A program made the translations under genes and the position numbers. Below, in pieces: positions 797-39,113 of a DNA stretch of 64,000 nucleotides (the first letter of the stretch is position 1; every line of letters begins with the position of its first letter). Source of the DNA: an uncultured Clostridia bacterium (GTDB lineage Bacteria; Bacillota; Clostridia; Oscillospirales; Acutalibacteraceae); the NCBI GenBank assembly GCA_944380765.1, contig CALWIO010000003.1, forward strand, positions 1,701 to 65,700. The letters are read 5' to 3'. The notes under the pieces were generated by a model. That model saw only the letters and a list, made by a program, of their open reading frames with translations. It had not been told where the DNA came from and searched no databases.

Positions 797-797
797 A

Positions 798-2832: not shown

Positions 2833-2867
2833 TAAAGTCCCTTTCCCCTTTCAATAAAAACAAAACG

Positions 2868-2899: not shown

Positions 2900-3018
2900 G
2901 CGCGCAAATCAGCGGCACATTTTTCCGCGCCGAAGTTAGCGCCCCACAAGCCGGGAAAGCCGTTCGGGTTCGGTTTAATTTCCGTTTACGGTTGTTCCCG
3001 AAAAACTGCCGCGGCTTG

Positions 3019-3450: not shown

Positions 3451-3788
3451 ATATCCCCCTCCGTGGTTTTTCTGACGACTGCCCACACATAAAGCGCCCG
3501 CTCGCCCGAATAAATCTTTTCGGCGCGGTCAACGCTGTACCGGCAGCCGTCGCTGTCGTTAATTCTGTAAGTCCTGTCAAGACGCGTAAGGTCGTGTTCT
3601 GCCGGGCCGAGATAAAGATAAAGATCGTTTCCGTTTATTCCTATCGGCGTGGGCGTTCCGTCAAGATACAGCTTGGTTTTGTACCTTAAAGGCTGCAAAA
3701 AGGCGTTATAGACCGGGCTTTGCCAGCCGTCCGCTCCCGTGAGAAAAACGCTTCTGCCGTAACGGTTAAATACTTTTTCGATAATCAA
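3447..3788 (-). CDS. Phage head-closure / head-tail adaptor-like protein
   Basis: 113 aa. Size and position directly after the gp6-like connector gene; 4-nt overlaps on both sides. Confidence 0.55.
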   Translation of the reverse strand: MIIEKVFNRYGRSVFLTGADGWQSPVYNAFLQPLRYKTKLYLDGTPTPIGINGNDLYLYLGPAEHDLTRLDRTYRINDSDGCRYSVDRAEKIYSGERALYVWAVVRKTTEGDI

Positions 3789-4153
3789 GCGTTCACCGCC
3801 TCAAACACAAAATCCACATCGGTGAGATACGCCGCCGCCGCGAGCAGAGCCTCGTCGCGGAACCTTGAAGCGTTTTCGGCGGCTGAAGCGGCGCTGCGGC
3901 TTACGGTTATGTCGCCCGCCTTCATTGACTCAAAGCTCTCGTCCGAGGCGGTTTTAACAAGTGTAAAGCGGTACAGCGCCACGCCGGCGCAGGCGGCTAT
4001 TACCGCCGGAACATCTCCGTATTCGGCGCGCCGCAGACGGTTTGAAACCTCGGCGCACGCGGCAGAGCAGAAAGGAATTATTCTTTCGCAGTCCTCCTCG
4101 CTGAGCGCCTGAGCGTCACGCAGGAACTGAATTACGGACCAGACATTTATCAT
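3785..4153 (-). CDS. Phage head-tail connector (gp6-like / DNA-packaging) protein
   Basis: 122 aa, helical, immediately downstream of the major capsid gene as in siphophage head modules. Confidence 0.55.
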   Translation of the reverse strand: MINVWSVIQFLRDAQALSEEDCERIIPFCSAACAEVSNRLRRAEYGDVPAVIAACAGVALYRFTLVKTASDESFESMKAGDITVSRSAASAAENASRFRDEALLAAAAYLTDVDFVFEAVNA

Positions 4154-4168
4154 AATATCAGCCCCTTA

Positions 4169-5173
4169 TCAGATATTCATTACCTTTGAGGCGTCGGCAA
4201 AGATTTTGGCAAAGCCGGAAATCTGGGTAATCGCCGCGCGTTCAAGCTGACGGTCGATAAGACGGTCGAAATCCGTTTCAATGCCGCCGGCGGTAACCAT
4301 TTCAAGAGCGCAGTTTTTATCAAGCGCGATGAGCTTTGAGGTTATGTCGGCGGATTTTAAAAGCTTTGCGCCGAGAGGAGTTATCATAACGCCGCTGCCG
4401 TGGAAATTAAGTCCCGCGTGAGCGTCGCGGAATTCGCTCATATTGAGAAGCATTGCGCTTACATCGGGCGAGGCGATGAGCGTGTTCATCTCATAAGGCG
4501 AAAAGCTGTTCCACAGCTTTACAAGGTCGGCGTATTCAAGAGCGCCCTGTGCGGCAGGCTCGATCTCAGCGGCGGGATTGGAGTTTCCGTCGCCGTTTAC
4601 GAGCACATCTACGGCGTCTTTAAGCTGGGTGCGCGCGATATAGGCGCCTATCTGGCGCAGAGTTACCGTGAAAAGGTCAAGGCGCTGAAAGCGTATTGCC
4701 TCATAAGAAGCCACGAGCATTCTGCCCCTCTTGCGAAGACGCACAAGATTTTCCTGAGTTCTTATCTGAGTTTCGGGAATCTGCGCTCCCTCGGCAACAT
4801 TTTTAAGTTCCTTGTCATCGTCTGTGGGAACGGAAGTGATTGTTCTGTAATCAAGGCCGTTGATATTTGTTCTCGCGGCGATAACCGAAGAGAGAATATC
4901 CGCCTCCTCCTTGCCGCGGCGAACAGCTCTTGCCACATATTCGGGGAAAAGCACGGCGCTGTCGGTGGTGGAGAAGAACTTTTCAACGGGAGAGCTTCCC
5001 GCTCCGCTTATTTTAATGTCGAATCTTTTAAGCTGACGCTCAAAGGCGTCAAGCCCTTCAAGGGAGGTTCCCCTGTAATTTTCGGAAGGGTCGATTTTTT
5101 CGAGTTCCTCGGAAAATCCCTTTCCTGTTTTGTAAAGGCCTTTGTCGAGCCTGATAGTTTCAAAATTAGCCAT
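4169..5173 (-). CDS. Phage major capsid protein
   Basis: 334 aa with AGGAGGA RBS. Position after the protease/scaffold and decoration genes; size and composition typical of HK97-fold capsid proteins. Confidence 0.75.
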   Translation of the reverse strand: MANFETIRLDKGLYKTGKGFSEELEKIDPSENYRGTSLEGLDAFERQLKRFDIKISGAGSSPVEKFFSTTDSAVLFPEYVARAVRRGKEEADILSSVIAARTNINGLDYRTITSVPTDDDKELKNVAEGAQIPETQIRTQENLVRLRKRGRMLVASYEAIRFQRLDLFTVTLRQIGAYIARTQLKDAVDVLVNGDGNSNPAAEIEPAAQGALEYADLVKLWNSFSPYEMNTLIASPDVSAMLLNMSEFRDAHAGLNFHGSGVMITPLGAKLLKSADITSKLIALDKNCALEMVTAGGIETDFDRLIDRQLERAAITQISGFAKIFADASKVMNI

Positions 5174-5190
5174 ATTGTCCTCCTTATGAT

Positions 5191-5532
5191 TTAAAATATG
5201 ATTTCGGCAGTGGTATCCGCTGTGTTGACGGCGATTACCGTAACGCTTCTGCCGGTTGTGGCGGTTTTAATTCCGCCGGCGCCGTCGGCGGCTATTACAG
5301 CCGAGCCGAGCGCGGGAGCGGTAGAGCTGTATTTCACCTTAGCCCAGCCCGTAAGCTGAACGCAGGCGTATTTGCCGTCGTTACTAAGGCACACGCCCAC
5401 GGGAATGTTGCCCGAAGCGCACGCCGCGGCTGTGTGGTTTGCCGAGATTTTTACCAAATCGCCGGCTTTCAGCCCCTCGGCGGCAACGAGCGTTACCGCG
5501 TTTTGATTAAACCCTTTAACTGATACTGACAT
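5191..5532 (-). CDS. Small head decoration/cement-like protein (DUF2190-like)
   Basis: 113 aa, Gly/Ala-rich beta protein located between the protease/scaffold and capsid genes. Confidence 0.5.
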   Translation of the reverse strand: MSVSVKGFNQNAVTLVAAEGLKAGDLVKISANHTAAACASGNIPVGVCLSNDGKYACVQLTGWAKVKYSSTAPALGSAVIAADGAGGIKTATTGRSVTVIAVNTADTTAEIIF

Positions 5533-5544: not shown

Positions 5545-6507
5545 TTAAAATTTAAACTGACTGTTGGCGCCCGCGTCCGTCTTTTTTTCCTCTCTTAAAA
5601 GCTGGGGAACGGGGCCTATCACCGCCGAAGCCTGCTTTTTTAAAGCCGAACAGAGCTCTTCAAGATTTTCACAAGTCTGGTTTTCAAGCAGACTGTCAAC
5701 GCAGTCGCCCGAAAGAGAGTCAATGGCGACGGCAAAGTATTTCTTCGCCTTTTTTACAAGCGACTCGCGGTAAAGTCTGCCGTCGGCGCTCTCTTTTTCA
5801 AGAGAGGCGATATATGACGACAGCTTTTTCACATCGTCGCGCTCCAGGGTAAGGCTTTCCCCGTTTTTAACGGATTTAAGAATATTTTCCATACTGTTCT
5901 CCTTTTTATTTATCTTGGCGCTTTTTGTAACGCCGGCGTTTTTCTGAGCCGGAACAGCCACAAAAGACCACTCGTAAGCGTCGGTGATGTCCTCGATTGT
6001 CATAAAGCACAGCCTGCCCGAATACACTCCTCCCTTTTTGTGGGAGCAGCCGGTTTTTCCGCAGACGGAGCAGACTTTTTTCCCGGCGCTGCAGCTTATG
6101 CTGACCTCTTTTTTAATTCCGCTTTCAATATCGCGTATAAAAGAGGCGTTTTTCTCGCTTCTGACGGTGTAGCACCAGGCTTTTAAATACATATAGTCAA
6201 GCCCGTCGGCGGTCTTTTTTGAGCCGTCCTTTATAACCTTTGCCCGGTAGGCGCGCGCGTTCTGGTCCTCGCTTTGCATGCTGTGGTTCAAAATGCCCGT
6301 TTTGCCCTCAAAGAGCTTTTCAAGAGCGTAAAGCGACTCTTCGCTGAACCGTTCAAAGTCCCTGTCAAGCTCGTTGTCGCACAGAATAACACTGAAAACG
6401 AACACTTCCTCTTTTTTGAGCGGAACAAGTGCGTATTTGTTTATCAGCTCTAAATCCGCCTCATCGGGGATACCCGCCCTGTTGCAGGCGGAAAAGCTTT
6501 TAATCAT
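5545..6507 (-). CDS. Prohead protease / scaffolding-like protein
   Basis: ATG at 6507 with GGGAGGTG RBS. N-terminal GKTGILNHS segment and a Cys cluster (CSAGKKVCSVCGKTGCSH); C-terminal charged coiled-coil-like tail. Lies between portal and capsid. Confidence 0.55.
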   Translation of the reverse strand: MIKSFSACNRAGIPDEADLELINKYALVPLKKEEVFVFSVILCDNELDRDFERFSEESLYALEKLFEGKTGILNHSMQSEDQNARAYRAKVIKDGSKKTADGLDYMYLKAWCYTVRSEKNASFIRDIESGIKKEVSISCSAGKKVCSVCGKTGCSHKKGGVYSGRLCFMTIEDITDAYEWSFVAVPAQKNAGVTKSAKINKKENSMENILKSVKNGESLTLERDDVKKLSSYIASLEKESADGRLYRESLVKKAKKYFAVAIDSLSGDCVDSLLENQTCENLEELCSALKKQASAVIGPVPQLLREEKKTDAGANSQFKF

Positions 6508-7645
6508 TCTTTTCACCTCCCGACGCCGCAAGAGCCTTTGCCTGAGCCGTATAAAGCCCGGCTTTCGCCTGTTCGACGGCGTCCTGAAGCGTTATGTCGC
6601 TCCACTCCACACTCACTTTGCCGCTGTTGCCGCAAAGACGCAGAAACATCGAACAGATTTTTTCAATGACCGGTGTCAGAACGCGCCGGTACGCTTCGAT
6701 TTCGGTTGTGAGCGTGTCCGCCTGCTGCGAGGACATACGCTCGGTGGTTGACCAGGAAAGCCCCAGCATAAACGGCGGCAGTCCGAGCTTTGCCACTATC
6801 TGTTCCAGAAGCTGTCTTACGGGCACCTCGCTGTCAAGCACCTGATTGTCCGCTCCGATAACCTTAATCTGCACATCGCCCACCGCCACAAAATCCTTTA
6901 CGCTTCCGCTCTCCATGGCGCTTGACCATTCCTTGGCAATCTGCATGGCCCTTTCCTTGGCGTAGGCGCGGTCGAGCATATCGGACCCGGGATTGTAGGT
7001 AACCGCGAAACGCAGGTTGCCGGCTCTTTCCCAGTTCTGTCCTATCGCGTTAAAGATTTTCAAAAGCACCGACGAAACAAAGGGCAGACTTTTTAAAACC
7101 GAATTGCCCATAAGGCTTCCGGCTTCGGGATTGAGGGCGGAATACATTACAAGCTGCTGATGTTTTACGGGCACCGCGCCGGCGCAGTCCGCGCGGCAGA
7201 CGAGCACCTCGCTGAAATCCGCCGGATTTCTTTTAAGGCATATATCCTCCGCCGGCACATTATAAAGCGCCGTAATCTTTTCGCCGTCGGTCACCATTTC
7301 TCCCGCGGCGGTGCCGTATGTCAGCAGCTGGGCAAAGTAAATGTCAATAAAATGCTGAAGCGAACAGCCGCCCGCCGCAACCCGTATGTTTTTCACAAAA
7401 TCGTCGAGTTCCTTCTGATTTCCGCCGTTTAAGCTCTTTACCACAAAGCCGCCTGCAAGCCGCACGAGCTTATAAATCGCCGTGTCGATAACCGGCACCG
7501 CCTCGCGCAGGGAGCGGTAAAGCTCCGGACGGCACACCGTAAGCGGAGTGTAACCCGATAGGGCGTCAAACGGGTGGCGGGAAACCGTCTGAGGATACGC
7601 CGAGGCGCACACCTTTTTTCTGCCCAGCCTTTCAAATACGGACAA
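6500..7645 (-). CDS. Phage portal protein
   Basis: About 381 aa. Most likely start is TTG at 7645, 6 nt after AAAGGAGGT and 2 nt after the terL stop; an alternative ATG is at 7663. Position between terL and protease. Confidence 0.7.
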   Translation of the reverse strand: MSVFERLGRKKVCASAYPQTVSRHPFDALSGYTPLTVCRPELYRSLREAVPVIDTAIYKLVRLAGGFVVKSLNGGNQKELDDFVKNIRVAAGGCSLQHFIDIYFAQLLTYGTAAGEMVTDGEKITALYNVPAEDICLKRNPADFSEVLVCRADCAGAVPVKHQQLVMYSALNPEAGSLMGNSVLKSLPFVSSVLLKIFNAIGQNWERAGNLRFAVTYNPGSDMLDRAYAKERAMQIAKEWSSAMESGSVKDFVAVGDVQIKVIGADNQVLDSEVPVRQLLEQIVAKLGLPPFMLGLSWSTTERMSSQQADTLTTEIEAYRRVLTPVIEKICSMFLRLCGNSGKVSVEWSDITLQDAVEQAKAGLYTAQAKALAASGGEKND

Positions 7646-7646
7646 A

Positions 7647-8921
7647 TCAATACCTCCTTTCATTTCTTTCAACCGACAGAGCAAAAAATTCCCTGTCGCC
7701 GTCCCCCGGAAGGCTCGACACAAAATACCTTATATCGTCCATGGCGTGGTCATACTCCTTTCGGGGAACATCTTTGATACTTTTGCAGTCCCAGCGGTAA
7801 AGGGAAAACTCCCTTATTGTGTCCGCGCAGGAACTGCCTATCATAATTTTTTTCGCTTTAAGCATTGTGGAAACGCGGCGTATGCCGTCGGCAACATCGT
7901 TCTTCGCGGGAATCACCCTGAAAAAGCCTTCACGGCGGATACACTCGATAAATGATGCCGCCGAGGGGTCAACTATCACCGCCTCAACTCTTAACCCGTC
8001 CGCGAGCTTTACAAGCTGAGAATAGTACTCGCTGTCGGTCATCTGAAAGCCTTTTGCCTTTGAGTCGTGATAGAATTCCCTTAACCTGTACCACACGCCG
8101 CCGCTTTGCCCCCACAGTCCGAAAGAAGCCGGATTGACCGTTCCGTAATCGCAGGAGATAAAAAACCGCACGCATTCCTCTGGCGAAATGTCGCGCACAT
8201 GCTCTTTTTCGCTGAAAAAGGGATACACAAGCCCGTCGGCGGCAACCCATCTGCCCTCGATAAACCTCTCGTAAAAGGCGCCCGTATAAAGCGACTTGTA
8301 GCGGCGGCGGATTTTCGGGGAAAGCGAGGGGTTGTCGTCCATTAAAAAGTGGAGATAAAGGCAGTTTTTTTCCTCGGCGCGGCAAATCCATTCCTTGTAA
8401 AACCAGTGATGGGGGTTTTCGGGATTGCAGTTGAACCAGAATTTTGAGCCTGCCTGCGAGCACCTTGCCATAGCCTGCTCCACAAAAGAGCGCGGCATAA
8501 GCGCAACCTCGTCGAACATCACGCCGCAAAGCGTCATTCCCTGAATAAGCGCCGCCGAGGACTCGTCCTTTCCGCCGAAAAGATAAAACCTGTTTTTGCG
8601 TTTCCCCATTCCTATTTCGATGATATTCGCCGACTTTTTCTCGCTTATGAAAAAGCCCATATCGCGAAGCACCGGCAAAAGAGGGGTAACCACATTCCTT
8701 TTAAGCGAGGAAATTGTTTTTCCGCACAGGGCAAAGGAACAATCCGAAAAGCGAAAGAAGCTCCAAAGTATAAATGAAATCGACATACAGACCGTTTTGC
8801 CGCTTCGCACGGCGCCGTCGCATATTATCGCGTCGCGCCCGGAATACGGACTGGAATCGCACCACCAGTTGAGCGCGGTGAGCTGCTTTTTTGAGAATTT
8901 CTGAAATTTCAAATCAGCCAT
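7647..8921 (-). CDS. terL: Phage terminase large subunit (PBSX-like family)
   Basis: 424 aa with Walker A GAVRSGKT, Walker B-like MFDEVAL and a C-terminal nuclease-like region. Confidence 0.9.
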   Translation of the reverse strand: MADLKFQKFSKKQLTALNWWCDSSPYSGRDAIICDGAVRSGKTVCMSISFILWSFFRFSDCSFALCGKTISSLKRNVVTPLLPVLRDMGFFISEKKSANIIEIGMGKRKNRFYLFGGKDESSAALIQGMTLCGVMFDEVALMPRSFVEQAMARCSQAGSKFWFNCNPENPHHWFYKEWICRAEEKNCLYLHFLMDDNPSLSPKIRRRYKSLYTGAFYERFIEGRWVAADGLVYPFFSEKEHVRDISPEECVRFFISCDYGTVNPASFGLWGQSGGVWYRLREFYHDSKAKGFQMTDSEYYSQLVKLADGLRVEAVIVDPSAASFIECIRREGFFRVIPAKNDVADGIRRVSTMLKAKKIMIGSSCADTIREFSLYRWDCKSIKDVPRKEYDHAMDDIRYFVSSLPGDGDREFFALSVERNERRY

Positions 8922-29038: not shown

Positions 29039-29351
29039 CTGCGACTTTCAAGCGGTGTAAGGCGGTAAAAGCGGGCAAAAGCCGCGCTTTATCCCGATAC
29101 CGTTTTTAACAATATTGTAATCGTCTTTCGTCCGCTTCTGCCCCCTGCGGCTGTTTGCCGCCCGGTTGTTGCAGGCGGATTTTTTGTTATCTGCAAACGC
29201 TTTTTCTGTTATGACGAGCTTATCTTGATATTCACAATACAAGCCTTTGGCCGATACAAACGCAGGCTGTAAACAAAACCGCGCGCCTGTAAATCCTGTA
29301 AATACTGCCCTATTGAGCGCCTGTAAATGCCGCAGCAAGCTTTTGGTTTCG

Positions 29352-29387
29352 GAAAAGCAAAAACCGCCGGACAAAAACCGGCGGTTT
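29352..29387 (-). terminator. Rho-independent terminator ending the eight-gene surface operon
   Basis: Minus strand ACCGCCGG-N7-CCGGCGGT followed by TTTTTGCTTTTCC, about 40 nt after the last stop codon. Confidence 0.85.
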
Positions 29388-29427: not shown

Positions 29428-30333
29428 TTACGCCTCTTCTTCCTCATCCTTACGCTTTCTGCGGAAAAGAGGAATAAGGATAAACATAAACACGGTCACA
29501 ACCGCTATTCCGGTGGGAATCATTGGATTCTCACGCAGGAAGGCGCTGGTGTTGGGAATAATAGTATCAATGATACTTTCTTCCTCTTCCTGAGTTTCTT
29601 TTATTGTAACGCTCATATCGTCGTTAACAATAAAATCGACATTGATTTCCTTTGTGCCAACAGGAACGGTTATAAGCTGAGTTCCGTTCGGAAGCCGCTC
29701 AATTTTCATTTTTGAAACAGAGTTGCTTACAGCTATTGAAAAGCCGTCTCCGCCGATTACGGCGCCGTTATCATCGTATATAGTTACCTGATGATACCCG
29801 TCTTTAATTTCGCTTAAAGAATATTTACCGTTTTTAATCTCGGCGCTGTTGGAACCCAAGTCAAATTCCAGCCTGCCGCCGGGGAGCAGCTTATCGCCGC
29901 GGAAAACATTACCGCTCATTGCCATTCTCACGCATGGATCCTCGTGCGTAGGTTCTCCCTCGGGAGTGTCAGAGCCGTCGCAGCTTTCAAAATCGAAGAT
30001 AACCTCAATATCGGTATTGACATTTTCAAGAGTCAGCTGACCGTATAGCATATCATCGGTTTTATCCTCGCCGTTTACATAGACCTTTTTAAGGTGTGCA
30101 TCGCTGTCGGCTATAATATCAAGCCTGATATCCCCGAAACGGCCGATTTCAATTACCGAACCGCTGGGAACAAGCTCGCCGTCCATCAAAACGATACCGC
30201 CTTCGTTATAGACAACCGTGATTTCGTGTTCGCCGGGCACAACCGTTGAAAGCTGCGCTTCCTGAGCGAAAACGGAAAAAGATAGTAACATAACAAGCAG
30301 TAAGCTCATTACAATGCCGCTTGCCTTCTTCAC
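29428..30333 (-). CDS. Secreted beta-rich protein with C-terminal transmembrane anchor (operon gene 8)
   Basis: 301 aa with a GTG start after AGAAAGGGA. Signal peptide (..SFSVFAQE). C-terminus is IPTGIAVVTVFMFILIPLF-RRKRKDEEEEA, i.e. a hydrophobic helix plus basic tail with no LPXTG. Confidence 0.8.
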   Translation of the reverse strand: MKKASGIVMSLLLVMLLSFSVFAQEAQLSTVVPGEHEITVVYNEGGIVLMDGELVPSGSVIEIGRFGDIRLDIIADSDAHLKKVYVNGEDKTDDMLYGQLTLENVNTDIEVIFDFESCDGSDTPEGEPTHEDPCVRMAMSGNVFRGDKLLPGGRLEFDLGSNSAEIKNGKYSLSEIKDGYHQVTIYDDNGAVIGGDGFSIAVSNSVSKMKIERLPNGTQLITVPVGTKEINVDFIVNDDMSVTIKETQEEEESIIDTIIPNTSAFLRENPMIPTGIAVVTVFMFILIPLFRRKRKDEEEEA

Positions 30334-30365: not shown

Positions 30366-30860
30366 TTACGGAGTGGGTGCGTTATAAGTAACCGTATAGG
30401 TAAGAGTTCCTGTGTACTCAGCAATCGGAACGCCCGAGAAATCCGCTACCGTAACGGTAGTGTCAGATGTTACATTGTCTGTAACGGCAGGATAGGTCTG
30501 GCTGGTTGTTCCGCCGAGAGCAAAAGTAAGGAAATACTGGGGGTCAGCCTGAGCGTTTGTCATTTTGTTTTCATTGTTGCCGGTGACCTCTACTTTAAGA
30601 GTCGCGCCGAGCAGAAGCTGCGCGTCAACGGTGTAAGCCGCGTTCTGAGCCGAGGTGTCCTCCCAGTCAATAGCGATTTCGGCGGGAATTGTTACGCTGT
30701 ATTTATAAGCATCTTCACCACCGGTATTTGTCGTTTTGGTATAGACATTTACATCGGAATACTGGTTGATAGAATCCTTATCGATTGTCGCCGCGAAAGA
30801 TGTAACGCAGAGCGTAGCCATCATAGCGAGCGCCAAAACAACTGCAAGTATTTTTTTCAT
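30366..30860 (-). CDS. Secreted paralogue P1 of novel ~150-aa family
   Basis: 164 aa with signal peptide MKKILAVVLALAMMATLCVTSFA. Motifs YSVTIPAEIAIDW, LLLGATLKVEV and EYTGTLTYTV. Confidence 0.85.
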   Translation of the reverse strand: MKKILAVVLALAMMATLCVTSFAATIDKDSINQYSDVNVYTKTTNTGGEDAYKYSVTIPAEIAIDWEDTSAQNAAYTVDAQLLLGATLKVEVTGNNENKMTNAQADPQYFLTFALGGTTSQTYPAVTDNVTSDTTVTVADFSGVPIAEYTGTLTYTVTYNAPTP

Positions 30861-30887
30861 TGTAATTACTCCTTATATTTCCGCCCG

Positions 30888-31343
30888 TCAGACGATTTGA
30901 GCGGTGTAAGTGATTGTGTCGGTATATTCCGCAACGGGAGCCAGATCCCACGCTTCCTGCGCAACGGTTACCGTGATTGTGTTTGTTGTGCTTTCAGCCG
31001 CAGTAGCGGTATAGTCGGTAGTGCCACCGAGCATATAAGCAAGTGTAAGGGTGTCGTATGTCATCTCTTCGTCAGAAGCCGCGGTGATATTAAGGCTCTT
31101 GCCGGCTTCAAGGTGAGTTTCAACGGTATAAGAACTTTCAACCGCTGTGGTCTGATTCCACGGAACGGAAATTTCCGCGTCATAAATTACACTGTATGTT
31201 CCGCCTGCGGGAACTGTCGATGTATCTGTTTTAACAAGGCTGGAGCCGGTGTTCGCGGTTTCTGTAAGCTCATTGGCAAAAGCCGGAACGCACAGCGCAC
31301 AGAGCATTATGAGAGCCGTTAAAAGCGCAATAATTTTTTTCAT
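30888..31343 (-). CDS. Secreted paralogue P2
   Basis: 151 aa with signal peptide ..CVPAFA. Motifs YSVIYDAEISVPW, LEAGKSLNIT and WDLAPVAEYTDTITYTA. Confidence 0.85.
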   Translation of the reverse strand: MKKIIALLTALIMLCALCVPAFANELTETANTGSSLVKTDTSTVPAGGTYSVIYDAEISVPWNQTTAVESSYTVETHLEAGKSLNITAASDEEMTYDTLTLAYMLGGTTDYTATAAESTTNTITVTVAQEAWDLAPVAEYTDTITYTAQIV

Positions 31344-31360
31344 TTTTACTCCTCCTAAGT

Positions 31361-31846
31361 TTACGGTGTGGGCATTACTACTTCGGCTTCGAAGGTAAGA
31401 TTGTCGGTGTATTCCTCGATGGGAACATTTTCCCAGTCCGCCGCAGTTACATTGATCTGAATGGTTTTTGTCTCGTTTGCGAAAGCGGCAATCCCCACTA
31501 CATTTGTATCACCGGTTACGGTGTAGGGAAGCTGCTGAGTGCCGCCGGCGTTTTTCATTGCCGAGTTTACAGAAGCAACCGTTACGTTCAGCGTTGCACC
31601 GGGAATCAGCTGCGTTTCAACATCATAGGTCTCGGCTGTTTGTTCTTCGCCCCATTTTACATCAATTACGGCGGGATAGGTTACGGTGTAATAGCCGCCG
31701 CTTGCTTCAAGGTCGCTGTAATCGGTTATAACCGGCGTACTGCCGCTTGACGGAATACTTCCTTCGGTGATCTCGCCTGCGAATGCGGGAACGGTTACGG
31801 CAAAGAGCATCATAACCGCCAATAATACGGAAACTATTTTTTTCAT
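31361..31846 (-). CDS. Secreted paralogue P3
   Basis: ATG 31846 is 5 nt after AAGGAGTG. Signal peptide ..TVPAFA. Motifs YTVTYPAVIDVKW, LIPGATLNVTV and WENVPIEEYTDNLTFEA. Confidence 0.85.
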   Translation of the reverse strand: MKKIVSVLLAVMMLFAVTVPAFAGEITEGSIPSSGSTPVITDYSDLEASGGYYTVTYPAVIDVKWGEEQTAETYDVETQLIPGATLNVTVASVNSAMKNAGGTQQLPYTVTGDTNVVGIAAFANETKTIQINVTAADWENVPIEEYTDNLTFEAEVVMPTP

Positions 31847-31867
31847 GGTTTTCACTCCTTAGTAAAA

Positions 31868-32365
31868 TCAAACGATTTCAGCGGTGAAGGTAAGAGTGTC
31901 GGAATAAGTGCCGACAACCGCGGCGCCCCAATCCGCCTCTGCGATTGTTACGGTAAGATCCTGCTCTACCGCGGGAGTGTCAACTCCGCCGTAAACTACC
32001 GGTCCGCCGAGATATTCTGTTACACCGTCAAGGTTGTAAGCAAGCGTGTAAGTATCCTCAGCGCTGGCAACATAAGTCATAGCGCCGCTGCCCGCAACCG
32101 TAACTTTAAGCTGTTCGCCGTAACGCAGGTGAGCTTCTACCGCATAGCTAAGGTCAACCGGATCGGTTTCTCCCCACGGAATCTGTGTGTCGGCAGGGAT
32201 TGTTACATAGTAACTCGCGCCGTCATTTCCCGAAGCGTCCTGCTCCAGCGTCTGCACCAAAACCGTACCTGTGGCATTGTCCTTGTCAAGCTGCGCCGCA
32301 AATGCGGGAACGCAGAGAGTTAAGAGCATTGCCATAAACAAAACAACAGAAATAGTTTTTTTCAT
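31868..32365 (-). CDS. Secreted paralogue P4
   Basis: ATG 32365 is 6 nt after AAAGGAGTG. Signal peptide ..CVPAFA. Motifs YYVTIPADTQIPW, LRYGEQLKVTV and WGAAVVGTYSDTLTFTA. Confidence 0.85.
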   Translation of the reverse strand: MKKTISVVLFMAMLLTLCVPAFAAQLDKDNATGTVLVQTLEQDASGNDGASYYVTIPADTQIPWGETDPVDLSYAVEAHLRYGEQLKVTVAGSGAMTYVASAEDTYTLAYNLDGVTEYLGGPVVYGGVDTPAVEQDLTVTIAEADWGAAVVGTYSDTLTFTAEIV

Positions 32366-32386
32366 TTTAAGCACTCCTTTAAAAAA

Positions 32387-32839
32387 TTATATGTTTACGC
32401 ATTCTGCCTGAAATGTAAGCAAGTCCGTGTGCTCGCCAGCCGCGGCTTTTCCCCACTGCTCGTCAGTCACCGACACTGTCAGCTCAAAAGATTTGTTTAC
32501 CTCACCCGGCAGGAAGCTTATATCGTCTGCTCCGGAAAGAGTGTACTCAATTGTTTTCTGAGCGTCCATTGTGTTAACGAGCTTATAGTCGTTTTGCGAT
32601 GTTACGGAAACAGTCAGTACTTTTCCGGGCTCAATTTGCAGCTTTTCCGACTTGACCTCGCCTATGCCATAGGTTTCACTCTCCCATGGAATCTGTGTGT
32701 CAGCGGGAAAATACAGCGTCCAAACTTCATTGGTTGACGAGGTTGAAATAATCATTTGACTCTCGTCCGCCGCAAAAACGGGCAGAACCGTGAGAGTGAC
32801 AAGAACAACCGCCGCCAGAAGCGATAAAACTTTTTTCAT
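32387..32839 (-). CDS. Secreted paralogue P5 (most divergent)
   Basis: ATG 32839 is 7 nt after AGGAGGG. Signal peptide ..VLPVFA. Motifs LYFPADTQIPW, IEPGKVLTVSV and WGKAAAGEHTDLLTFQA. Confidence 0.85.
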   Translation of the reverse strand: MKKVLSLLAAVVLVTLTVLPVFAADESQMIISTSSTNEVWTLYFPADTQIPWESETYGIGEVKSEKLQIEPGKVLTVSVTSQNDYKLVNTMDAQKTIEYTLSGADDISFLPGEVNKSFELTVSVTDEQWGKAAAGEHTDLLTFQAECVNI

Positions 32840-32857
32840 TGACAAACCCTCCTGATA

Positions 32858-35800
32858 TTATCCTTTTGTATAATTAACGGTATATGTAACAGCCGCGTCC
32901 TGCCTGTATTCGGCAACCGGCTTGTTAACCCACTGTGAAGCCTCTACCTGTATCTGCGCCGCGTCTGTACGGTTTACAGTCGCTTTGCCTGTATAAACTC
33001 CGGGAGCGCTTACCGAAGAGGTGCAGGATATTACCTCGCTTGTGCCCGTATTGGTCAGATCAAAGGCGCTTTGCTTGAACGCCACGCTGACCTGTACTTC
33101 GGAGCCTGCGTTAAGATTACAGTTAATCTGATATCCGAGATTTGTTGACTCAGATCCCCACGGTATTCCGATTTCCGCCGGAATTGTCACCACATAGGAA
33201 TCGTCGGAAGCGTAGGTCACGCTGACCGTTTTAAGATCCTCGTATTTACGGTTGATGCCGTTTGAGTCAACATACTCATAAGTAAGTTTTATATATACCT
33301 CATCGCTGAGCGCAGCCGTAACGGAAGCGGGAGAATCAACGCTGAAACGAAGCGTCAGGCTGTATGAGCCTGAATCAGCCGGGCCGACACTGCCGTATGG
33401 CGTTTCGGTACTGTTCAAAACGAACGGTGTGCCGTTCACGGTCATGGTGTAGCTGAGCGGCGACTGCGAACCGTCCGCCGCGACAAGCTGACCGCCGTTC
33501 TTTGACCACACGGAAATCTGTGCCGTACCGCTTAAATCGCTTAAATAGCGCTCAAAATCAACGAGTGTATAAACCATATCGTTTTCGGTCTGCGGATTTT
33601 CGTCTGAAAGAATAACGCTGCTGTTCGGCACCATTCCGCTGTCCGTACTTGTTTCAAGCGTAGTCTTTGCGTACGGGAACAAATCGCGTATCTGCTGAAT
33701 CATATCGTACAGCTCGGCAACATTGTAGAAAGTGGGTATCAAGGCGTCATATTCTTCAATAGTCGCCCTAAGCTCTTCCCTTTCGGCGTCGGTAAGAGGA
33801 GTTCCTGACGCGAGCTTGTTCCTTGTTACGGTCAGCAGGTTGTTGTACTTATCATAAAGCGACAAAAGTCCCGCTCTTGTGGTAGTGCCGTTTATATTGT
33901 ATGTTGTCGAGTTGAGCAGCAGCTTTCTTATAGCTGTCGGTATATTTTTATAGTCGGAGTGAGCCTCACCCGAAGCCATAAGATATTTGGCAAAATAATC
34001 CATGCTGCTGCGATAATTATCATTTAGCTGCGAAAGCGAATCACGGTAACCCGTTCCGAGCGATATAAAGTATCCTTCGCGGCCGTCATAAGGTTTTGTT
34101 TTGTCATAAACCGTTGCCGGCTGTCCGGAAGAACCTAATTCCGTTCCCGCTGTTCCTGCCGCCTTGTCGGGATACCTCAAAGGAAGCTGTCTGTAAATCG
34201 AATCAGCCGAATTAACATCGGTAAGTTCATTTAACATTTCCGTTGTATCCGAAAGAGCTTTTTCAAGCGTTTCGTTACACCTCATCGCCGCGTTATAAGC
34301 ATTGATAAACTGTGTGCACAGCTCGTCGCCTATCAGTTGTTTCTGAGCTGTTGTGTACCTTGAATAGTCAAGATTGTAATACTCTATAATCTGCTCCGCC
34401 TGCTCTTTGGTAATTCCGTAAGCTGCATAGTTTACAGCGTCCGCCATTCCGTCGGAATCGTTATCAACATACCCGGGATAAGGCAAATCCTGCTCGCCGG
34501 ATACCGAAGCGTTCTTAACCGCATTGGGAAGTGAATTCACCCACGCAACGAAAGCCTCCGGCTCATCACGGTACATATACTCGCTTTGCGGAATTTCTCC
34601 TGAAATTACTTTTTCGTAATATATAAGCCTTTCATTGGCATTTATTACCGACTGAACCTGAGTCCTCTGATATTCCGTAAGGGTATTATACTGTACCCTC
34701 GCCGCAAATACATCGTCTGCAAAGAGACCGTCGTTAATCTCAATTGCAGCGACAGCATCCTCAAACTGCTGAGCCGGAAGGCTCTTCGCCTGACAAACCT
34801 CGTCGAAGTCCGTGTCGTTTCTGCCGGTTACTCCGGGATATACATCGGGCTGATAGGCAAAGCCGATGGTGTCAATCATATAAGAAGCGCCTGTCATAGC
34901 GACCGCCGCCGCGTTGGAATTGGGTGCTACACCTATTTGAACCTTACAAATTCCGTTGAGCGCCGTTACGCTTTCGTCCATGCCCACGCCCTCATTTATC
35001 AAGCCGGACCTCTCACCCTTGAAATGATACAGCGGAAGCATAACCCAGCCCTTATAGTGGTCGAGGCTTAATCCCTCGGCGCCGTCTGACGAATTGTAGC
35101 CGTATATACGGTTGCTGTAACAGCAGACCCATTCGCCGGTATCCGGATTCAAAAGCCAGTATTTTCTGTCTCCGGAATCCGTACCCATATCCAGAGTATA
35201 GTCGGTAAGATTTCCGTCAGAGTCTTTCGTTGTAATGGTCGCCGTAAGACGGAAATCGGAGAGCTGGCTGAAGTCTGCATAGAACGCAAGCGCCAGCGGA
35301 AGAATCTTGGTTTCGTCATAGCTTCCGGGATTATACTGGTTCGCAAACTGACCGAGATTGAACTGCCCCATATTGTTATTAAGAAGACTGTCGGTCGTTC
35401 CGTCCTGTCCCTGATAGGTGACGGAAAGAACATTGTAAAAGCCCTCGTTTTCACTGTATCCCTGCCCGTTGAGCTGTATCACGGCAGCGTTTGTGCCGTT
35501 AAATCCGCCGGCTTCTATTGTCGCAAGCATTTGGTTAACATAAAGGGGATCGGTGTCCGCGGTGTGATCGGCTCCGGACGATCTTCGAAAACCGTCCACA
35601 ATCGGATATGACCATGAATATGAGCCTAAGGAACCGGTAGCATCACTGTCAGCACCCGTAAATCCGCGGAAACGCTTTGTAGTATATGTCAGGAAGCCCT
35701 TTGTGTAACGGTAGTCCTGCCCGTAAACGCCTGAGCCTAAGTTCGGATAGTTTTCAAGCTGCCAGGCCATTGAGCCCTGCGTCTGGTTCGCGGCGTCAAA

Positions 35801-38143
35801 GTCATTGAACACTATAAATTTGTTGTTTGCCAAGGACTGACCTACAACATCCATTTCTGAATCGGAAGAACCGCTGCTCATAAGAGCGAAATAGCTGCGA
35901 AGCTCCTGTTCCTCGGCGGTGCTCAGTGCGTCAAGCTGAGTAAGATTAAGTCTTCTGTAAAGCTGATAGAGCTTTTGTATCTCATCATTAAGCTGATCGC
36001 TGACGCTTGTTACATTTGACGGGTCAGGAAGCTTTTCCATGCTTCTTATAAGCTCCGGCACCAAATCGTATGCCGTTATATTTGTGGGATATGCCGCCGA
36101 CGCCGTGGGATTGTCCGGGTCATTCGGCGTTATTGTACCCGCCGCCCAGCACTCTTTGCGCGCGGTTATAAAATTGTTCCAGCTTTCCCGTCCCTGGGAA
36201 GCCGCCAATGCCGCCAGAGAATCCTCGCTTAAAAAGTCGGTGGAAACACCCGCCTGTGAAAAGGCTGTGCGGTATCCCTCTATAAGCTCTTCAATATACC
36301 GTACCGCGCCGAAGTCGGCAAGGTCCGGGCTTGAAAGATAATGATCTATTTCAGAAAGTATGCTGTTCGCAATTTCCTCTTTCTGCTCGTAATATTTTGA
36401 AGCCGGGTCGCCGGTGTTCTTCTCATTGCCGTCCAGCGTGTTTTCCGGGTAGGCCTGCCCGTCGGTTCTGTAAAACAGAACATTATCCATAAAGAAACTC
36501 TTATTTACGCTTTCATCGCTCGTATCCTTATAAGAAAATCCCGCAGAATAAAGGTCATTTATAGCTTTAAGTCCGTTCTCACGGTTTAGTACCGTTCCGT
36601 TTTGAATATACGCCCTGTCCGCCGTGCTGTTTGTGTCGGCCTCGTCCATTTTGTAACCCGCCGCGAGCATTGCAGCGCCCCAGGTCGGGTATTCCATATA
36701 GGCGTAATCTCCGCTTGCGTAATCATAGGGATAGTGCCACTTGGCCTCACTTGCACCGCCTGGATTATAATCAGTACTCTTATCAACCGCGAACTGACGG
36801 TACTGAATAAGCATGGCGTCGGAAACCGAGGTGCCCGCCTCGTCAACAAGCACCGGCTGGCTGTAAAGAATATTATTTTCAAACCATGCTTTTACCTCGG
36901 CGCCGTCGTTTTCACGATTCAGCACGCACACGGTGTCAACCATGTTGAAGTTCAAATTGGTAGCTTCGGCGTAGGTATTCTTTGTGGAGCACATAAACTC
37001 AAGCGGCACGCGGATATAACCCTTGTAATGAGAAAGGTCTATAGTGCCGTTGTTAAGCATTACCTTCTGCCAGCCGCCGTTTTCCTGCTGAATAAAAACA
37101 TATGGCGCTTCGCCCTTATAGCCGGAAGCGGTTGTGCCGAGCGTAGAGTAGGTGACGGGGCTGTACTGGTCTGTTCCGCCGCTGTCAAACTTTACTACGC
37201 CGTCGTCAAGCGAGGTGTCTCTGCCGTTTGTGTGTCCGCCGAAGGCTCTTTTATTTCGATAGTAGAACTCGCCTAAAAGCTTTGCGTTGGTTTTAAGGTC
37301 AAAGGAAAGACCGGTTACCGAAACCTGAGAAAGGTCCATCCAGAACCATACTTCTTCGGCACCTTCAAAGTCATAGGTCTGACGGCTGTACGGCGTCGTA
37401 AAAGCTTGTGTCACCCCGCCCGTTCTGTTATTTATATAGAATCTGAGCGCAGATGAACTCAAACCTGTTGACGGGTCGATAACGCCGTCGCGTGTGCCTA
37501 TGCCGTACAACGCAAGACTGCTGCCTGTAAGCTGTCCCGTAGGAGTACCGCCGCTCTCAAAAATCATCATCTCGCGCATTGCCTTTTCATTCTCGGTCAG
37601 AGGCGCGTACGCGTCGGCATCATATTCAAATCTCGGAGTATCTGTAACTGCGCAGTCAATCGGTTCGGAAACCCAGCCTGTGCTGTCAACTGCTGTTATG
37701 CGGATATTGTAACGGTTGTTATCTGAAAGAGTCACTGACTTTGCCGAAAGCTCCGCAGCTGTAATATTAAGCGAATAATAAGTGCTTGAAGCATCTGTTA
37801 CGGTCACCGTTTTTTCGTATTCCAGCACTCTCTGATGCAATGAGAGCGTAGATCCGAGATTATACAGCGACAAAAGATAATAGCTTATCGTTTTCGGCTC
37901 TTTTCCCGGATACTCACGGGCAGTCGCGGCTGAAAACATTACATGCACACCGCCGTCGTCAAGAAGATAGGCCGCAGCTGAAGCGTCGCTCGTGAAAACC
38001 GGCGTCGGGTCGTATGTACCGGGTCCCGCCGCGAGAGCAATCGGAAGCGAACCGACTATCATAATCGCCGACAGCAGCACCGCCATCAGCTTTTTGTTCA
38101 CTTTATTTGTTTTACCAAAAGCTGAAAATATTTGTTTTTTCAA
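32858..38143 (-). CDS. Giant secreted multidomain protein (~1,760 aa) ending in a paralogue-type domain
   Basis: Likely TTG start at 38143 (AAAGGAGAG plus 8 nt); the ORF is open to 38173. Has a signal/anchor helix. The C-terminal ~140 aa carry YVVTIPAEIGIPW, LNAGSEVQVSV and WVNKPVAEY...VTYTV. Confidence 0.85.
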   Translation of the reverse strand: MKKQIFSAFGKTNKVNKKLMAVLLSAIMIVGSLPIALAAGPGTYDPTPVFTSDASAAAYLLDDGGVHVMFSAATAREYPGKEPKTISYYLLSLYNLGSTLSLHQRVLEYEKTVTVTDASSTYYSLNITAAELSAKSVTLSDNNRYNIRITAVDSTGWVSEPIDCAVTDTPRFEYDADAYAPLTENEKAMREMMIFESGGTPTGQLTGSSLALYGIGTRDGVIDPSTGLSSSALRFYINNRTGGVTQAFTTPYSRQTYDFEGAEEVWFWMDLSQVSVTGLSFDLKTNAKLLGEFYYRNKRAFGGHTNGRDTSLDDGVVKFDSGGTDQYSPVTYSTLGTTASGYKGEAPYVFIQQENGGWQKVMLNNGTIDLSHYKGYIRVPLEFMCSTKNTYAEATNLNFNMVDTVCVLNRENDGAEVKAWFENNILYSQPVLVDEAGTSVSDAMLIQYRQFAVDKSTDYNPGGASEAKWHYPYDYASGDYAYMEYPTWGAAMLAAGYKMDEADTNSTADRAYIQNGTVLNRENGLKAINDLYSAGFSYKDTSDESVNKSFFMDNVLFYRTDGQAYPENTLDGNEKNTGDPASKYYEQKEEIANSILSEIDHYLSSPDLADFGAVRYIEELIEGYRTAFSQAGVSTDFLSEDSLAALAASQGRESWNNFITARKECWAAGTITPNDPDNPTASAAYPTNITAYDLVPELIRSMEKLPDPSNVTSVSDQLNDEIQKLYQLYRRLNLTQLDALSTAEEQELRSYFALMSSGSSDSEMDVVGQSLANNKFIVFNDFDAANQTQGSMAWQLENYPNLGSGVYGQDYRYTKGFLTYTTKRFRGFTGADSDATGSLGSYSWSYPIVDGFRRSSGADHTADTDPLYVNQMLATIEAGGFNGTNAAVIQLNGQGYSENEGFYNVLSVTYQGQDGTTDSLLNNNMGQFNLGQFANQYNPGSYDETKILPLALAFYADFSQLSDFRLTATITTKDSDGNLTDYTLDMGTDSGDRKYWLLNPDTGEWVCCYSNRIYGYNSSDGAEGLSLDHYKGWVMLPLYHFKGERSGLINEGVGMDESVTALNGICKVQIGVAPNSNAAAVAMTGASYMIDTIGFAYQPDVYPGVTGRNDTDFDEVCQAKSLPAQQFEDAVAAIEINDGLFADDVFAARVQYNTLTEYQRTQVQSVINANERLIYYEKVISGEIPQSEYMYRDEPEAFVAWVNSLPNAVKNASVSGEQDLPYPGYVDNDSDGMADAVNYAAYGITKEQAEQIIEYYNLDYSRYTTAQKQLIGDELCTQFINAYNAAMRCNETLEKALSDTTEMLNELTDVNSADSIYRQLPLRYPDKAAGTAGTELGSSGQPATVYDKTKPYDGREGYFISLGTGYRDSLSQLNDNYRSSMDYFAKYLMASGEAHSDYKNIPTAIRKLLLNSTTYNINGTTTRAGLLSLYDKYNNLLTVTRNKLASGTPLTDAEREELRATIEEYDALIPTFYNVAELYDMIQQIRDLFPYAKTTLETSTDSGMVPNSSVILSDENPQTENDMVYTLVDFERYLSDLSGTAQISVWSKNGGQLVAADGSQSPLSYTMTVNGTPFVLNSTETPYGSVGPADSGSYSLTLRFSVDSPASVTAALSDEVYIKLTYEYVDSNGINRKYEDLKTVSVTYASDDSYVVTIPAEIGIPWGSESTNLGYQINCNLNAGSEVQVSVAFKQSAFDLTNTGTSEVISCTSSVSAPGVYTGKATVNRTDAAQIQVEASQWVNKPVAEYRQDAAVTYTVNYTKG

Positions 38144-38169
38144 GATTTTTGCTCTCCTTTCCGAAAAAG

Positions 38170-38973
38170 TCAAGACGCAACTATAACCGTCTTAATGTCC
38201 ATATTGTTAAGCGGGCGCTGTTCCTTGTCAAAGCTGAAGCAGAGGAAATGAACAGTAACATCATATTCTCCCGCGTCCAGCGCCCTGTTGAGTTCAAATT
38301 TTGAGATGTGGTATCCGGGCGGAATAAGGTCGGATTTATAAAGAATTTCGCCCGTGTCGCGCATTTCTATTTCTATCTGGAAATAGCAGGGGTTTTCTTC
38401 CGGATTCGCAAAAACATAGTTCTGCGAAGTCTGACCGGCTTTAAGCTGCATCTGTGCTATTCCGTTTATTTTAATCTGTTTGCCCTTGGTTTCGGTTTTT
38501 TCGGGGACGGATACCTCACCCTCGCCTAGCTCCGCACCTGTATCTATTACACCGCTGCCCGTATTGTCAGCGGGGGGAGTATCGGAACTGTCGGGCCAGA
38601 AAAGTACTACCGCCGCCGCAATCGCCGCGATTACAAGAAGACCCGCAATTACCGCGAGAATGATGGCCGCGAGAATATCCCTGACAACGGCTATAAACTC
38701 ATGCTCGCCCACCTGAACATATCCGCTGACCGAGGTGTGAGGCATTTTCCGGGTTTTATAAACCTTTTCGTCAACGCCGCCGAAGCTGAGAACGCCCGTT
38801 TCGGTACGGCCGGCGCCTATCTGGCCGACGACATAGTAACCGCCTGCGGGAAAAGCCTTTTTCATATCGGCGCTCTTTATGTAGGAAACCCTGAAACCGC
38901 TTTTTTTATTAACATATGTTTTGTTTGCCGTTATTTCACCGGCATATACGGTAAACTGAACTGAATCTGCCAA
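38170..38973 (-). CDS. Single-pass membrane protein (operon gene 1): N-terminal cytoplasmic beta domain, TM, extracellular beta-sandwich-like domain
   Basis: 267 aa with a TTG start 7 nt after GGAGG. Central TM ILAAIILAVIAGLLVIAAIAAAVVLFW. The stop overlaps the open frame of the giant gene. Confidence 0.75.
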   Translation of the reverse strand: MADSVQFTVYAGEITANKTYVNKKSGFRVSYIKSADMKKAFPAGGYYVVGQIGAGRTETGVLSFGGVDEKVYKTRKMPHTSVSGYVQVGEHEFIAVVRDILAAIILAVIAGLLVIAAIAAAVVLFWPDSSDTPPADNTGSGVIDTGAELGEGEVSVPEKTETKGKQIKINGIAQMQLKAGQTSQNYVFANPEENPCYFQIEIEMRDTGEILYKSDLIPPGYHISKFELNRALDAGEYDVTVHFLCFSFDKEQRPLNNMDIKTVIVAS

Positions 38974-39085: not shown

Positions 39086-39113
39086 ATTATACTAAATTTT
39101 GACTTGTTGTCAA
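39086..39113 (-). promoter_or_regulatory. Near-consensus promoter of the surface operon
   Basis: Minus strand TTGACA (39113-39108), 16-nt spacer, TATAAT (39091-39086); about 105-nt leader to the TTG start. Confidence 0.6.

Follow-up and report, generated by a model that had tools for sequence, protein, structure and literature searches.

A giant protein is encoded on the minus strand of a 64,000-nucleotide stretch of DNA (the window) from an uncultured Clostridia bacterium, contig CALWIO010000003.1. It ends in a domain that is homologous to five small secreted proteins, s1–s5, whose genes follow its own. Together with the genes of two further proteins, designated p267 and p301, these form an eight-gene operon that recurs among uncultured gut Clostridia. 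The best-supported reading of the giant protein, which the data bear out in part, is that of a cargo protein or tip adhesin carried on a scaffold of the small paralogues. More specifically, we propose with middling confidence that it is the cargo-bearing member of a self-contained surface-assembly operon, the products of which would form a heteromeric surface stalk by strand complementation. The architecture of such a stalk would parallel those of the WxL gene clusters and of the donor-strand pili. Residues of the giant protein are counted from an upstream in-frame TTG at 38173, and the number in the real protein is obtained by subtracting 10. The coordinates of the features are listed in Table 1.

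The C-terminal attachment region

In BLASTP comparisons, residues ~1635–1766 of the giant protein matched all five small proteins with E values from 7.5e-10 (s3) to 0.07. Comparison of a profile of giant homologues with 23 mature small subunits by hhalign gave 99.7% and an E value of 7.7e-26 over 123 columns. This alignment begins at the N-terminal strand of the mature small proteins, and the signature blocks of the last domain of the giant protein (C2) and of the small proteins align in register. A preliminary description of this DNA had proposed that the C-terminal ~140 amino acids are akin to the small paralogues, and the profile comparison bears this out for the last ~135. The mature small domain comprises 125–140 amino acids; it opens with an N-terminal strand of alternating hydrophobic residues with a nearly invariant threonine, continues with a variable, irregular linker and ends in ...TLTFTAxxV without a hydrophobic tail. 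A lipoprotein reading of the small proteins, raised by LPAM_1 matches, was rejected because conservation does not extend to the cysteine and because VPAFA, which is conserved, is in keeping with signal peptidase I.

The giant protein was modelled with AlphaFold2 (AF2) in two parts (residues 45–1120 and 1116–1771), each from 38 sequences. The model of the second part has a mean predicted local distance difference test (pLDDT) score of 57 and starts with a confident helical region. Its C-terminal end consists of an immunoglobulin (Ig)-like domain (C1), a strand homologous to the N-terminal strand of the small proteins, and the C2 core. In the model, the last strand of C1 (EVYIKLTYEYVD) pairs with residues 1641–1655 (YEDLKTVSVTYA, pLDDT ~75) in a long hairpin. 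The latter strand completes C1 and is docked on this preceding module, not on the C2 core. The C2 core is highly conserved and unfolded in the single-chain model, with pLDDT values below 40.

The top Foldseek matches of residues 1116–1771 are almost all chaperone–usher pilins or tip adhesins with E values of 4.6e-6 to 1e-3, namely CooA (4.6e-6), CfaB, FimA, EcpA, CsuA/B, CsuE, CfaE, CupB6, AggA, and CssA/B. We assign these matches to C1, because C1 with the strand that follows it is the sole well-formed beta domain of the right size. As modelled, the domain preceding the paralogue-type domain thus most likely has a chaperone–usher pilin-like fold. The C1 core also gave a weak hhalign match to the small-subunit profile (53%, E = 1.3e-4, 81 columns). 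Judged from sequence, the giant protein may therefore end in two tandem copies of the module, with C1 possibly a degenerate small-subunit domain.

Pfam scans of individual members at E ≤ 10 covered 39 and 127 small subunits, each scan reporting the 25 families that most members match. DUF4402 was found for 3 of 39 and 5 of 127 small subunits at E values of ~0.01–0.02, far below threshold. A PDB profile search with the small-subunit family returned only Fab-construct matches made through the signal peptide, which were discarded, and nothing after the signal peptide had been removed. Mean-field covariation analysis of 390 small subunits (effective sequence number, Neff, 213) recovered plausible hairpins. 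It ties the N-terminal strand both to the strand that follows it in the same protein and to the beginning of the C-terminal strand, a pattern that suits a complete domain as well as a swap, contacts within and between chains being inseparable in such data.

A conserved operon and a reused module

The eight genes are arranged head to tail on the minus strand in the order p267, giant, s1–s5, and p301. The small genes span 30366–32845 and encode proteins of 151–168 amino acids, all with MKK...VPAFA signal peptides. Intergenic gaps are short across the operon, which has one consensus promoter and one strong terminator; this arrangement suggests that the genes are expressed at about the same dosage, as would suit a complex of constant composition. 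All of the operon proteins are strongly acidic (isoelectric point, pI, about 4), and the small subunits contain no cysteines.

A scan of one genome per species yielded 25 loci from Candidatus Fimenecus and other uncultured gut Clostridia, of which 23 extend beyond the giant gene, 17 reach the anchor gene, and 14 are fully contained. As far as each contig reaches, the genes follow the sequence p267, giant, s1, s2, one to eight further small paralogues, and a p301-family protein (316–669 amino acids). The number of small genes is 3–10 per locus, and 5–10 in the fully contained loci. The s1 type is first and the s2 type second in 23/23 loci extending past the giant gene, and the s5 type is the last ahead of the anchor in 14 of 16. 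The p267 family comprises essentially only orthologues from operons of this type. The giant protein, the paralogues, the upstream membrane protein, and the downstream anchored protein belong to a strictly conserved operon. No further gene is common to the 25 loci, and no sortase, chaperone, usher, secretion ATPase, or signal peptidase was found there.

Loci with 9–10 small genes (L008, L012, L013, L015, L016, and L020) share the pattern ...s5-s3-s3-(s3|s2)-s5, which suggests block duplication of a four-gene unit within the operon. The 3' half of such an operon is also present at bases 2–5227 of MT836423.1, an unannotated 10.5-kb record from human faeces named ‘UNVERIFIED: Bacteriophage sp.’. 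It encodes the C-terminus of the giant protein, s1, s2, s2, s3, s3, s3, s5, and a p301 homologue, and is probably a bacterial contig filed as viral.

Scans of the eight operon proteins against Pfam, NCBIfam, and PHROGs returned nothing above noise, and the four operon families have no Pfam, NCBIfam, or PDB match. The sole name that any source gives to a homologue is ‘hypothetical protein [Ruminococcus sp.]’. The predicted topology of p267 places about 90 amino acids ahead of its transmembrane (TM) helix and a conserved beta-rich domain of ~110 amino acids at the C-terminus. Pfam scans of 16 individual p267 homologues at E ≤ 10 showed nothing recurrent. A protein of 218 amino acids (P0495) that shares about a third of p267 is annotated as LysM (PF01476), and this partial sequence relative is a possible hint that relatives of p267 work at the cell wall.

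In p301, the second beta domain is CarboxypepD_reg/prealbumin-like (CarboxypepD_reg is weakly matched by 13 of 15 family members in Pfam at E ≤ 10) and is followed by an acidic or proline-rich linker and a conserved IIPxT..ENP motif. The tail after the C-terminal TM helix reads RRKRK-DEEEE. All p301 homologues have a signal peptide, a C-terminal TM helix, and a basic tail. The family-wide juxtamembrane motif, I[IP][PS]xT..(I/F)RENP (window 29431–29560, and homologues), lies ~10 residues before the TM helix and its RRKKK-DEEEE tail. A Pro/Asp-rich linker precedes it in many homologues, and the motif resembles a sorting signal, though it is not LPXTG. Some species carry versions of p301 of ~650 amino acids. 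Comparison of the p267 and p301 domains with the subunit, C1, and the modules by hhalign gave nothing convincing (best 30%).

An exhaustive HMMER search with the family profile of the small subunits found 868 clusters at 50% identity. Most of these are proteins of ~160 amino acids or giants of ~1650–1870 amino acids with the domain at the extreme C-terminus. Two other architectures combine a signal peptide and the module with BspA-type leucine-rich repeats (LRR; ~465 amino acids) or with a ubiquitin-like domain (~238 amino acids), and both types are encoded by stand-alone genes in unrelated neighbourhoods. Since the domain is C-terminal on giant, LRR, and ubiquitin-like proteins, the C2-type domain appears to behave as a portable C-terminal attachment module. 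The occurrence of the same module on LRR and ubiquitin-like cargo is also consistent with the giant protein being a cargo protein or adhesin attached through it.

The ubiquitin-type proteins (P0360 and P0373; L029:8001-8717, also L030 and L031) carry a eukaryote-like ubiquitin domain (Pfam E value of 2e-26), and their genes are flanked by a Mur ligase gene on one side and a gene for a peptidase M14 on the other. From its domains, the ~238-amino-acid protein looks like a surface-displayed ubiquitin-like protein of a gut Clostridium. The BspA-type LRR proteins with the module (P0254, P0274, P0298, P0369, and P0279; L026:8001-9389, also L027 and L028) are secreted and stand-alone, and a cohesin-domain protein is encoded ~2.6 kb downstream of the LRR gene. 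Very large repeat proteins (P0241, P0329, and P0371), in which 13–20 stretches each match the small-subunit profile, were rejected as most likely composition-driven matches; P0241, the only one of the three inspected, has Calx-beta-like, Thr/Val/Asp-rich repeats and comes from a high-GC organism.

A proposed surface stalk and its alternatives

We propose that, after Sec export, the first ~1500 residues of the giant protein point away from the cell. This distal part, consisting of an FN3-like domain and two jelly-roll copies that are each followed by a long helical spacer, would presumably bind a ligand, and the last ~255 residues (C1 and C2) would be the attachment part. Adjoining modules would be joined by beta-strand complementation, the strand ahead of one core pairing with the final strand of the module before it, as modelled for C1 and C2. 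The giant protein (C1–C2) would couple to s1, then to s2, further small subunits, and s5, roughly in gene order, and the chain would end at p301 with its C-terminal helix in the membrane. The resulting short heteromeric stalk would lift the binding modules through the cell wall, and p267 may be an assembly factor. By a rough estimate, the thickness of a Gram-positive wall would be bridged by five to ten Ig-sized modules. This reading is based on the pilin-like fold, the unfolded last core, the fixed gene order, the best-conserved s1, the membrane-anchored last protein, and the single promoter; that strands complement one another in trans, how the subunits are ordered, what geometry the stalk has, which ligand is bound, and what p267 does are the parts of it that we infer. 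The earlier portrayal of the giant protein as a tip adhesin or cargo on a polymer thus gains from the C2 homology, the conserved operon, the presence of the module on other cargo, and the pilin-like C1, whereas the polymer and the tip position stay conjectural.

Several observations weigh against a stalk of this kind. The strand pairing is seen only inside the single-chain model of the giant protein and not between separate chains, and both AF2 models, obtained from 38 sequences with mean pLDDT values of 52 and 57, are of modest quality. The Foldseek output gave no query coordinates, and the pilin matches were assigned to C1 by elimination. Covariation among the 390 small subunits joins the N-terminal strand to the one that comes next in the same protein, and the orphan cargo proteins keep this strand though nothing precedes it; the N-terminal strand may be no more than the opening strand of a domain that is complete by itself. 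Cargo encoded by stand-alone genes is more usual for modules that dock or bind to the wall than for subunits of a pilus tip. In addition, the known pilin families were undetectable by sequence in the Pfam scans and PDB profile searches.

The main rival explanation, which we consider rather unlikely, is a wall platform of the WxL type. The paralogue-type domain would then bind the wall (peptidoglycan or a wall polymer) non-covalently, with the small proteins and C2 side by side, and p301 would act as a WxL-interacting protein that stabilises them through an inserted strand and ties them to the membrane, so that no filament is formed. Such a platform explains the gene architecture without any polymer (PMC10599100, PMC9772566). 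The WxL (csc) clusters of Lactobacillales and Bacillales encode small WxL proteins, large WxL proteins, and a WxL-interacting protein (WxLIP; DUF916-DUF3324-TM), and strand insertion beside a mobile N-terminal strand has been predicted for them (PMC10599100, PMC9772566). The layout found here is equal to that of the published clusters, which have small secreted domain-only proteins, a large protein with adhesive N-terminal domains and the shared domain at its C-terminus, and a protein of ~320–380 amino acids with two Ig-like domains and a C-terminal TM helix (PMC10599100, PMC9772566). Strand insertion between partners is predicted in both systems, and both have LRR-bearing large members (PMC10599100, PMC9772566); here, the module ends unlinked LRR proteins, as WxL does. 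The N-terminal strand followed by a variable, irregular linker to the core is also as described for WxL.

The shared architecture alone does not establish homology with the WxL clusters, and several features separate the two. The WxL domain is a C-terminal domain of 160–190 amino acids with two conserved Trp-x-Leu motifs (PMC9772566), whereas the domain described here has 125–140 amino acids. Two such motifs were found in 0 of 390 small subunits and one in 12. The C-terminal aromatic residue, in the motif xLT[FY]x, is F in 182 and Y in 158 of these members and never W. The Pfam family WxL (PF13731) was not among the families reported for the 166 scanned members (39 + 127; E ≤ 10, the 25 most-matched families per scan), and neither DUF916 nor DUF3324 was found in the p301 family (15 members). 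A WxL match in one p301 homologue (E = 0.025) was taken as chance. The operons contain 5–10 distinct small genes in conserved order instead of 1–2, they encode p267 as an additional conserved membrane protein, and they lack an LPxTG protein; their hosts are Clostridia and not Bacilli, and the fold match is to pilins. The pI of about 4 of all components is a weak point against the wall platform, as enterococcal WxL partners are acidic too.

An improbable alternative is that there is no assembly. Each small paralogue would then act on its own as a secreted or surface protein, for example within a diversified family of binding proteins or antigens, and the giant protein would share a domain with them by descent. 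The diversity of the subunit family (868 clusters at 50% identity), the variable copy number of 3–10 per locus, and strand pairing modelled only within one chain are consistent with this. However, gene order and positional orthology are strict across the 25 species-representative loci, cargo proteins invariably carry the domain at their C-terminus, the cluster always comes with two membrane proteins, and the C2 core remains unfolded on its own in the model.

The stalk that we favour resembles chaperone–usher pili (class 5 CFA/I-CS1 with CfaB/CooA and the tip CfaE; archaic Csu; type 1 Fim) in that a predicted pilin-like Ig fold lies beside the attachment module and that, as in FimH, CfaE, and CsuE, the distal binding domains of the large protein are followed by a C-terminal pilin-type domain. 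Several minor-subunit-like paralogues in fixed order and an N-terminal strand of alternating hydrophobics, modelled as completing the preceding domain, are further likenesses. In contrast to those pili, the host is a monoderm without an outer membrane, and the base would be a membrane-anchored protein. Pfam identified no chaperone or usher among the four gene families common to the 25 loci. Membership in pilin families (Fimbrial, SCPU, DUF4402, and others) did not rise above threshold, and no PDB chain was similar.

Chaperone-free donor-strand fibres (TasA/TapA, Bacillus Ena, F-Ena, archaeal threads, and bundling pili) are built from small Sec-exported beta-sandwich subunits with separate anchor or tip proteins. 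The small Sec-exported subunits studied here could likewise be linked through complementing strands, with neither a chaperone nor an ATPase involved. They differ from TasA and Ena in being a heteromeric, ordered set in place of one major subunit, and Ena-type disulfides are not expected, since the small subunits lack cysteines. For the small subunits scanned, the reported families include neither Peptidase_M73 (camelysin) nor Enas/DUF3992, and Enas was matched by only 2 of 15 p301 members (E = 0.31). No SipW-type or other signal-peptidase gene was found in the operon or among its conserved neighbours.

With sortase pili, the operon shares a gene order from tip to base, a prealbumin/CnaB-like domain in p301 with weak SpaA, SdrD_B, and FctA matches, and a hydrophobic C-terminal helix with a basic tail in p301, preceded by a threonine-containing motif. 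However, this motif, situated ~10 residues ahead of the helix, is not LPXTG but I[PS]xT with G, S, L, F, or D in the next position; sorting signals are absent altogether from the small subunits, and no sortase gene is conserved beside the operon in the 25 loci. Judged from these comparisons, the operon would be a variant among Gram-positive surface-display systems, built from four undescribed protein families. We raise tentatively, as a possibility, that it encodes an undescribed Gram-positive surface filament, namely a short, ordered, membrane-rooted heteropolymer that is joined by donor strands without sortase, chaperone/usher, or ATPase and has a plug-in domain on which unlinked cargo (the giant, BspA-type LRR, and ubiquitin-like proteins) is mounted. 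A literature search for a Gram-positive donor-strand pilus of this type returned only TasA, Ena, archaeal threads, and cannulae.

Derivation from a phage or prophage, as a receptor-binding or tail-fibre module, is very improbable. Two observations are in its favour, namely that FN3/Ig-like domains give weak Foldseek matches to the tail tip of phage lambda and to a haloviral turret, and that one ‘UNVERIFIED Bacteriophage sp.’ record carries part of such an operon. However, PHROGs gave no meaningful match, the operon is flanked by different housekeeping genes at different loci, and all products have Sec signals or membrane anchors. The ‘phage’ record itself is an unannotated 10-kb contig on which the 3' half of the operon alone is present and further ORFs (open reading frames) follow. 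A plasmid search gave no match to the operon.

The four operon families are unannotated yet common in gut Clostridia, with 868 subunit clusters, 835 giant homologues, and 25 species-representative genomes. If the assembly model is true, it would provide a new route by which monoderm gut bacteria display very large adhesins beyond the wall, and it would bring together the cluster plan of the WxL systems and the principles of fold and strand complementation known from Gram-negative pili. As a marker, the shared C-terminal module would help to find the surface-displayed proteome of these uncultured organisms, in which LRR proteins and secreted ubiquitin-like proteins are possible partners in host interactions.

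The giant gene, its distal region and neighbouring features

The longest ORF of the giant gene is 32858..38173 (-) with 1771 amino acids. Within it, TTG 38143 sits 7 nt past AAAGGAGAG, a ribosome-binding site rated good, and the N-termini of giant homologues read MKK at this position; we take TTG 38143 as the real start on the grounds of this spacing and of the homologues. It follows the stop of the upstream gene by 27 nt. The gene extent of 32858–38143 in the preliminary description is thus correct, and the motifs quoted there were all found at their positions. The giant protein has a hydrophobic segment at residues 25–52 within its N-terminal region and is a secreted surface protein. The best 120 of its 835 homologues are all full length (~1740–1823 amino acids, 43–99% identity), unnamed, and without Pfam domains.

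The AF2 model of residues 45–1120 has a mean pLDDT of 52 and is of modest quality. At its N-terminal end, Foldseek against the PDB matched FN3 domains with a probability of 1.0 and TMt values (TM-score normalised to the target) of 0.55–0.70. These matches agree, at modest confidence, with an FN3-like stretch proposed before; Pfam fn3 was not matched by the N-terminus. The core of module 1 was modelled as jelly-roll-like with pLDDT values of 70–85, closed by strands from residues ~522–570, and has a low-confidence insertion at ~404–520. Module 2 is beta-rich with pLDDT values of 40–69, and its first ~120 amino acids are predicted to be disordered. The long helical linkers described after both modules are present in the two AF2 models.

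With this low-confidence model, Foldseek matched the SusE-like BT2857 (E = 6.7e-4) and a carbohydrate-binding module (CBM; 2c26, E = 8.9e-4), and more weakly CBM-like domains of agarases (~1e-2). No Pfam CBM was matched in the giant protein. Of the duplicated modules, described at first as looking like carbohydrate-binding or discoidin-type sandwiches, module 1 agrees at modest confidence with a CBM-like jelly roll as modelled; carbohydrate binding is suggested only by weak fold matches (E ~1e-3) of a low-confidence model. On these CBM- and SusE-like matches, the modules may be glycan binders.

A self-comparison of the giant protein, as called for in the preliminary description, showed no internal repeat by BLASTP at E ≤ 10. 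A 16-sequence alignment of the giant protein was then cut into eight segments, and 28 pairs were compared by hhalign. Module 1 (186–470) against module 2 (776–1115) was the sole signal (E = 1.1e-4), located in the region of the HYKG motifs. An extended, more permissive alignment covered 191 columns in three collinear blocks, VWFWMDLSQVS / LAFYADFSQLS, YVFIQQENGGWQKV / YWLLNPDTGEWVCC, and IDLSHYKGYIRVPLEF / LSLDHYKGWVMLPLYHF. The score of 37.0 exceeded those of all 150 column shuffles (14.6 ± 2.8, maximum 27.6), and the reversed control scored 13.3. Large insertions set the modules apart. The two HYKG modules are thus related, as claimed earlier; at the sequence level, the duplication is real but ancient, and visible only with profiles.

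Table 1 Features of the giant gene and its operon in the window.
Feature	Position	Strand	Residues	Remarks
Promoter-like site TTGACA-16-TATAAT	39086..39113	(-)		12/12; upstream of p267; consensus match only
p267, membrane protein	38170..38973	(-)		One TM helix mid-protein (residues ~91-130); precedes giant
Giant protein gene	32858..38143	(-)		1761 amino acids from TTG 38143
Signal peptide (MKKQ...SLPIALAA|G)	38027..38143	(-)		Read from sequence; putative cleavage site
FN3-like beta-sandwich	37640..38002	(-)	~58-178	AF2 pLDDT 65-86
NNRYNIRITAVDSTGWVSEP	37661-37720		152-171	Giant motif
Module 1, aromatic-rich jelly-roll/CBM-like sandwich	36449..37618	(-)	~186-575	As modelled
TIDLSHYKGYIRVPLEFM (HYKG motif 1)	36992-37045		377-394	In module 1
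Helical spacer 1	35876..36385	(-)	~597-766	AF2 pLDDT mostly 45-82, highest in first half
Module 2, diverged duplicate of module 1	34829..35848	(-)	~776-1115	
LSLDHYKGWVMLPLYHFK (HYKG motif 2)	35018-35071		1035-1052	In module 2
Helical region 2	33683..34807	(-)	~1123-1497	First ~200 amino acids confidently helical (AF2)
C1, Ig-like, predicted chaperone–usher pilin-like fold	33254..33625	(-)	~1517-1640	AF2 pLDDT 60-89
Strand homologous to N-terminal strand of small proteins	33209..33253	(-)	1641-1655	RKYEDLKTVSVTYAS; pLDDT ~75
C2 core, paralogue-type domain	32861..33208	(-)	1656-1771	
YVVTIPAEIGIPW	33158-33196		1660-1672	Giant C-terminal motif
LNAGSEVQVSV	33083-33115		1687-1697	Giant C-terminal motif
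WVNKPVAEY	32906-32932		1748-1756	Giant C-terminal motif
VTYTV	32876-32890		1762-1766	Giant C-terminal motif
s1, small secreted paralogue	32387..32845	(-)		First after giant; best conserved small protein
s2, small secreted paralogue	31868..32374	(-)		Always second position
s3, small secreted paralogue	31361..31855	(-)		Sequence similarity
s4, small secreted paralogue	30888..31343	(-)		Sequence similarity
s5, small secreted paralogue	30366..30860	(-)		...TYNAPTP tail; last small gene before anchor
p301, likely membrane anchor	29428..30333	(-)		Signal peptide, two beta domains, C-terminal TM helix
Terminator-like hairpin	29361..29387	(-)		10-bp stem, 7 GC pairs; readable on both strands; after p301

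The operon is flanked by housekeeping genes, namely those of Dus, a GH35 beta-galactosidase (other strand), a tRNA methyltransferase, LeuRS, SMC, FtsY, TopA, and DprA. An ORF of 108 amino acids with a TTG start (window 29048–29374, minus strand) overlaps the terminator hairpin and is probably not a gene. Farther away in the window, an ORF at 7647–8921 (minus strand) matches Terminase_6N, the N-terminal domain of the terminase large subunit (E = 2e-12), and lies with neighbouring ORFs (5545–7723) in a chromosomal setting, possibly as the remnant of a prophage or as part of an element resembling a gene-transfer agent.

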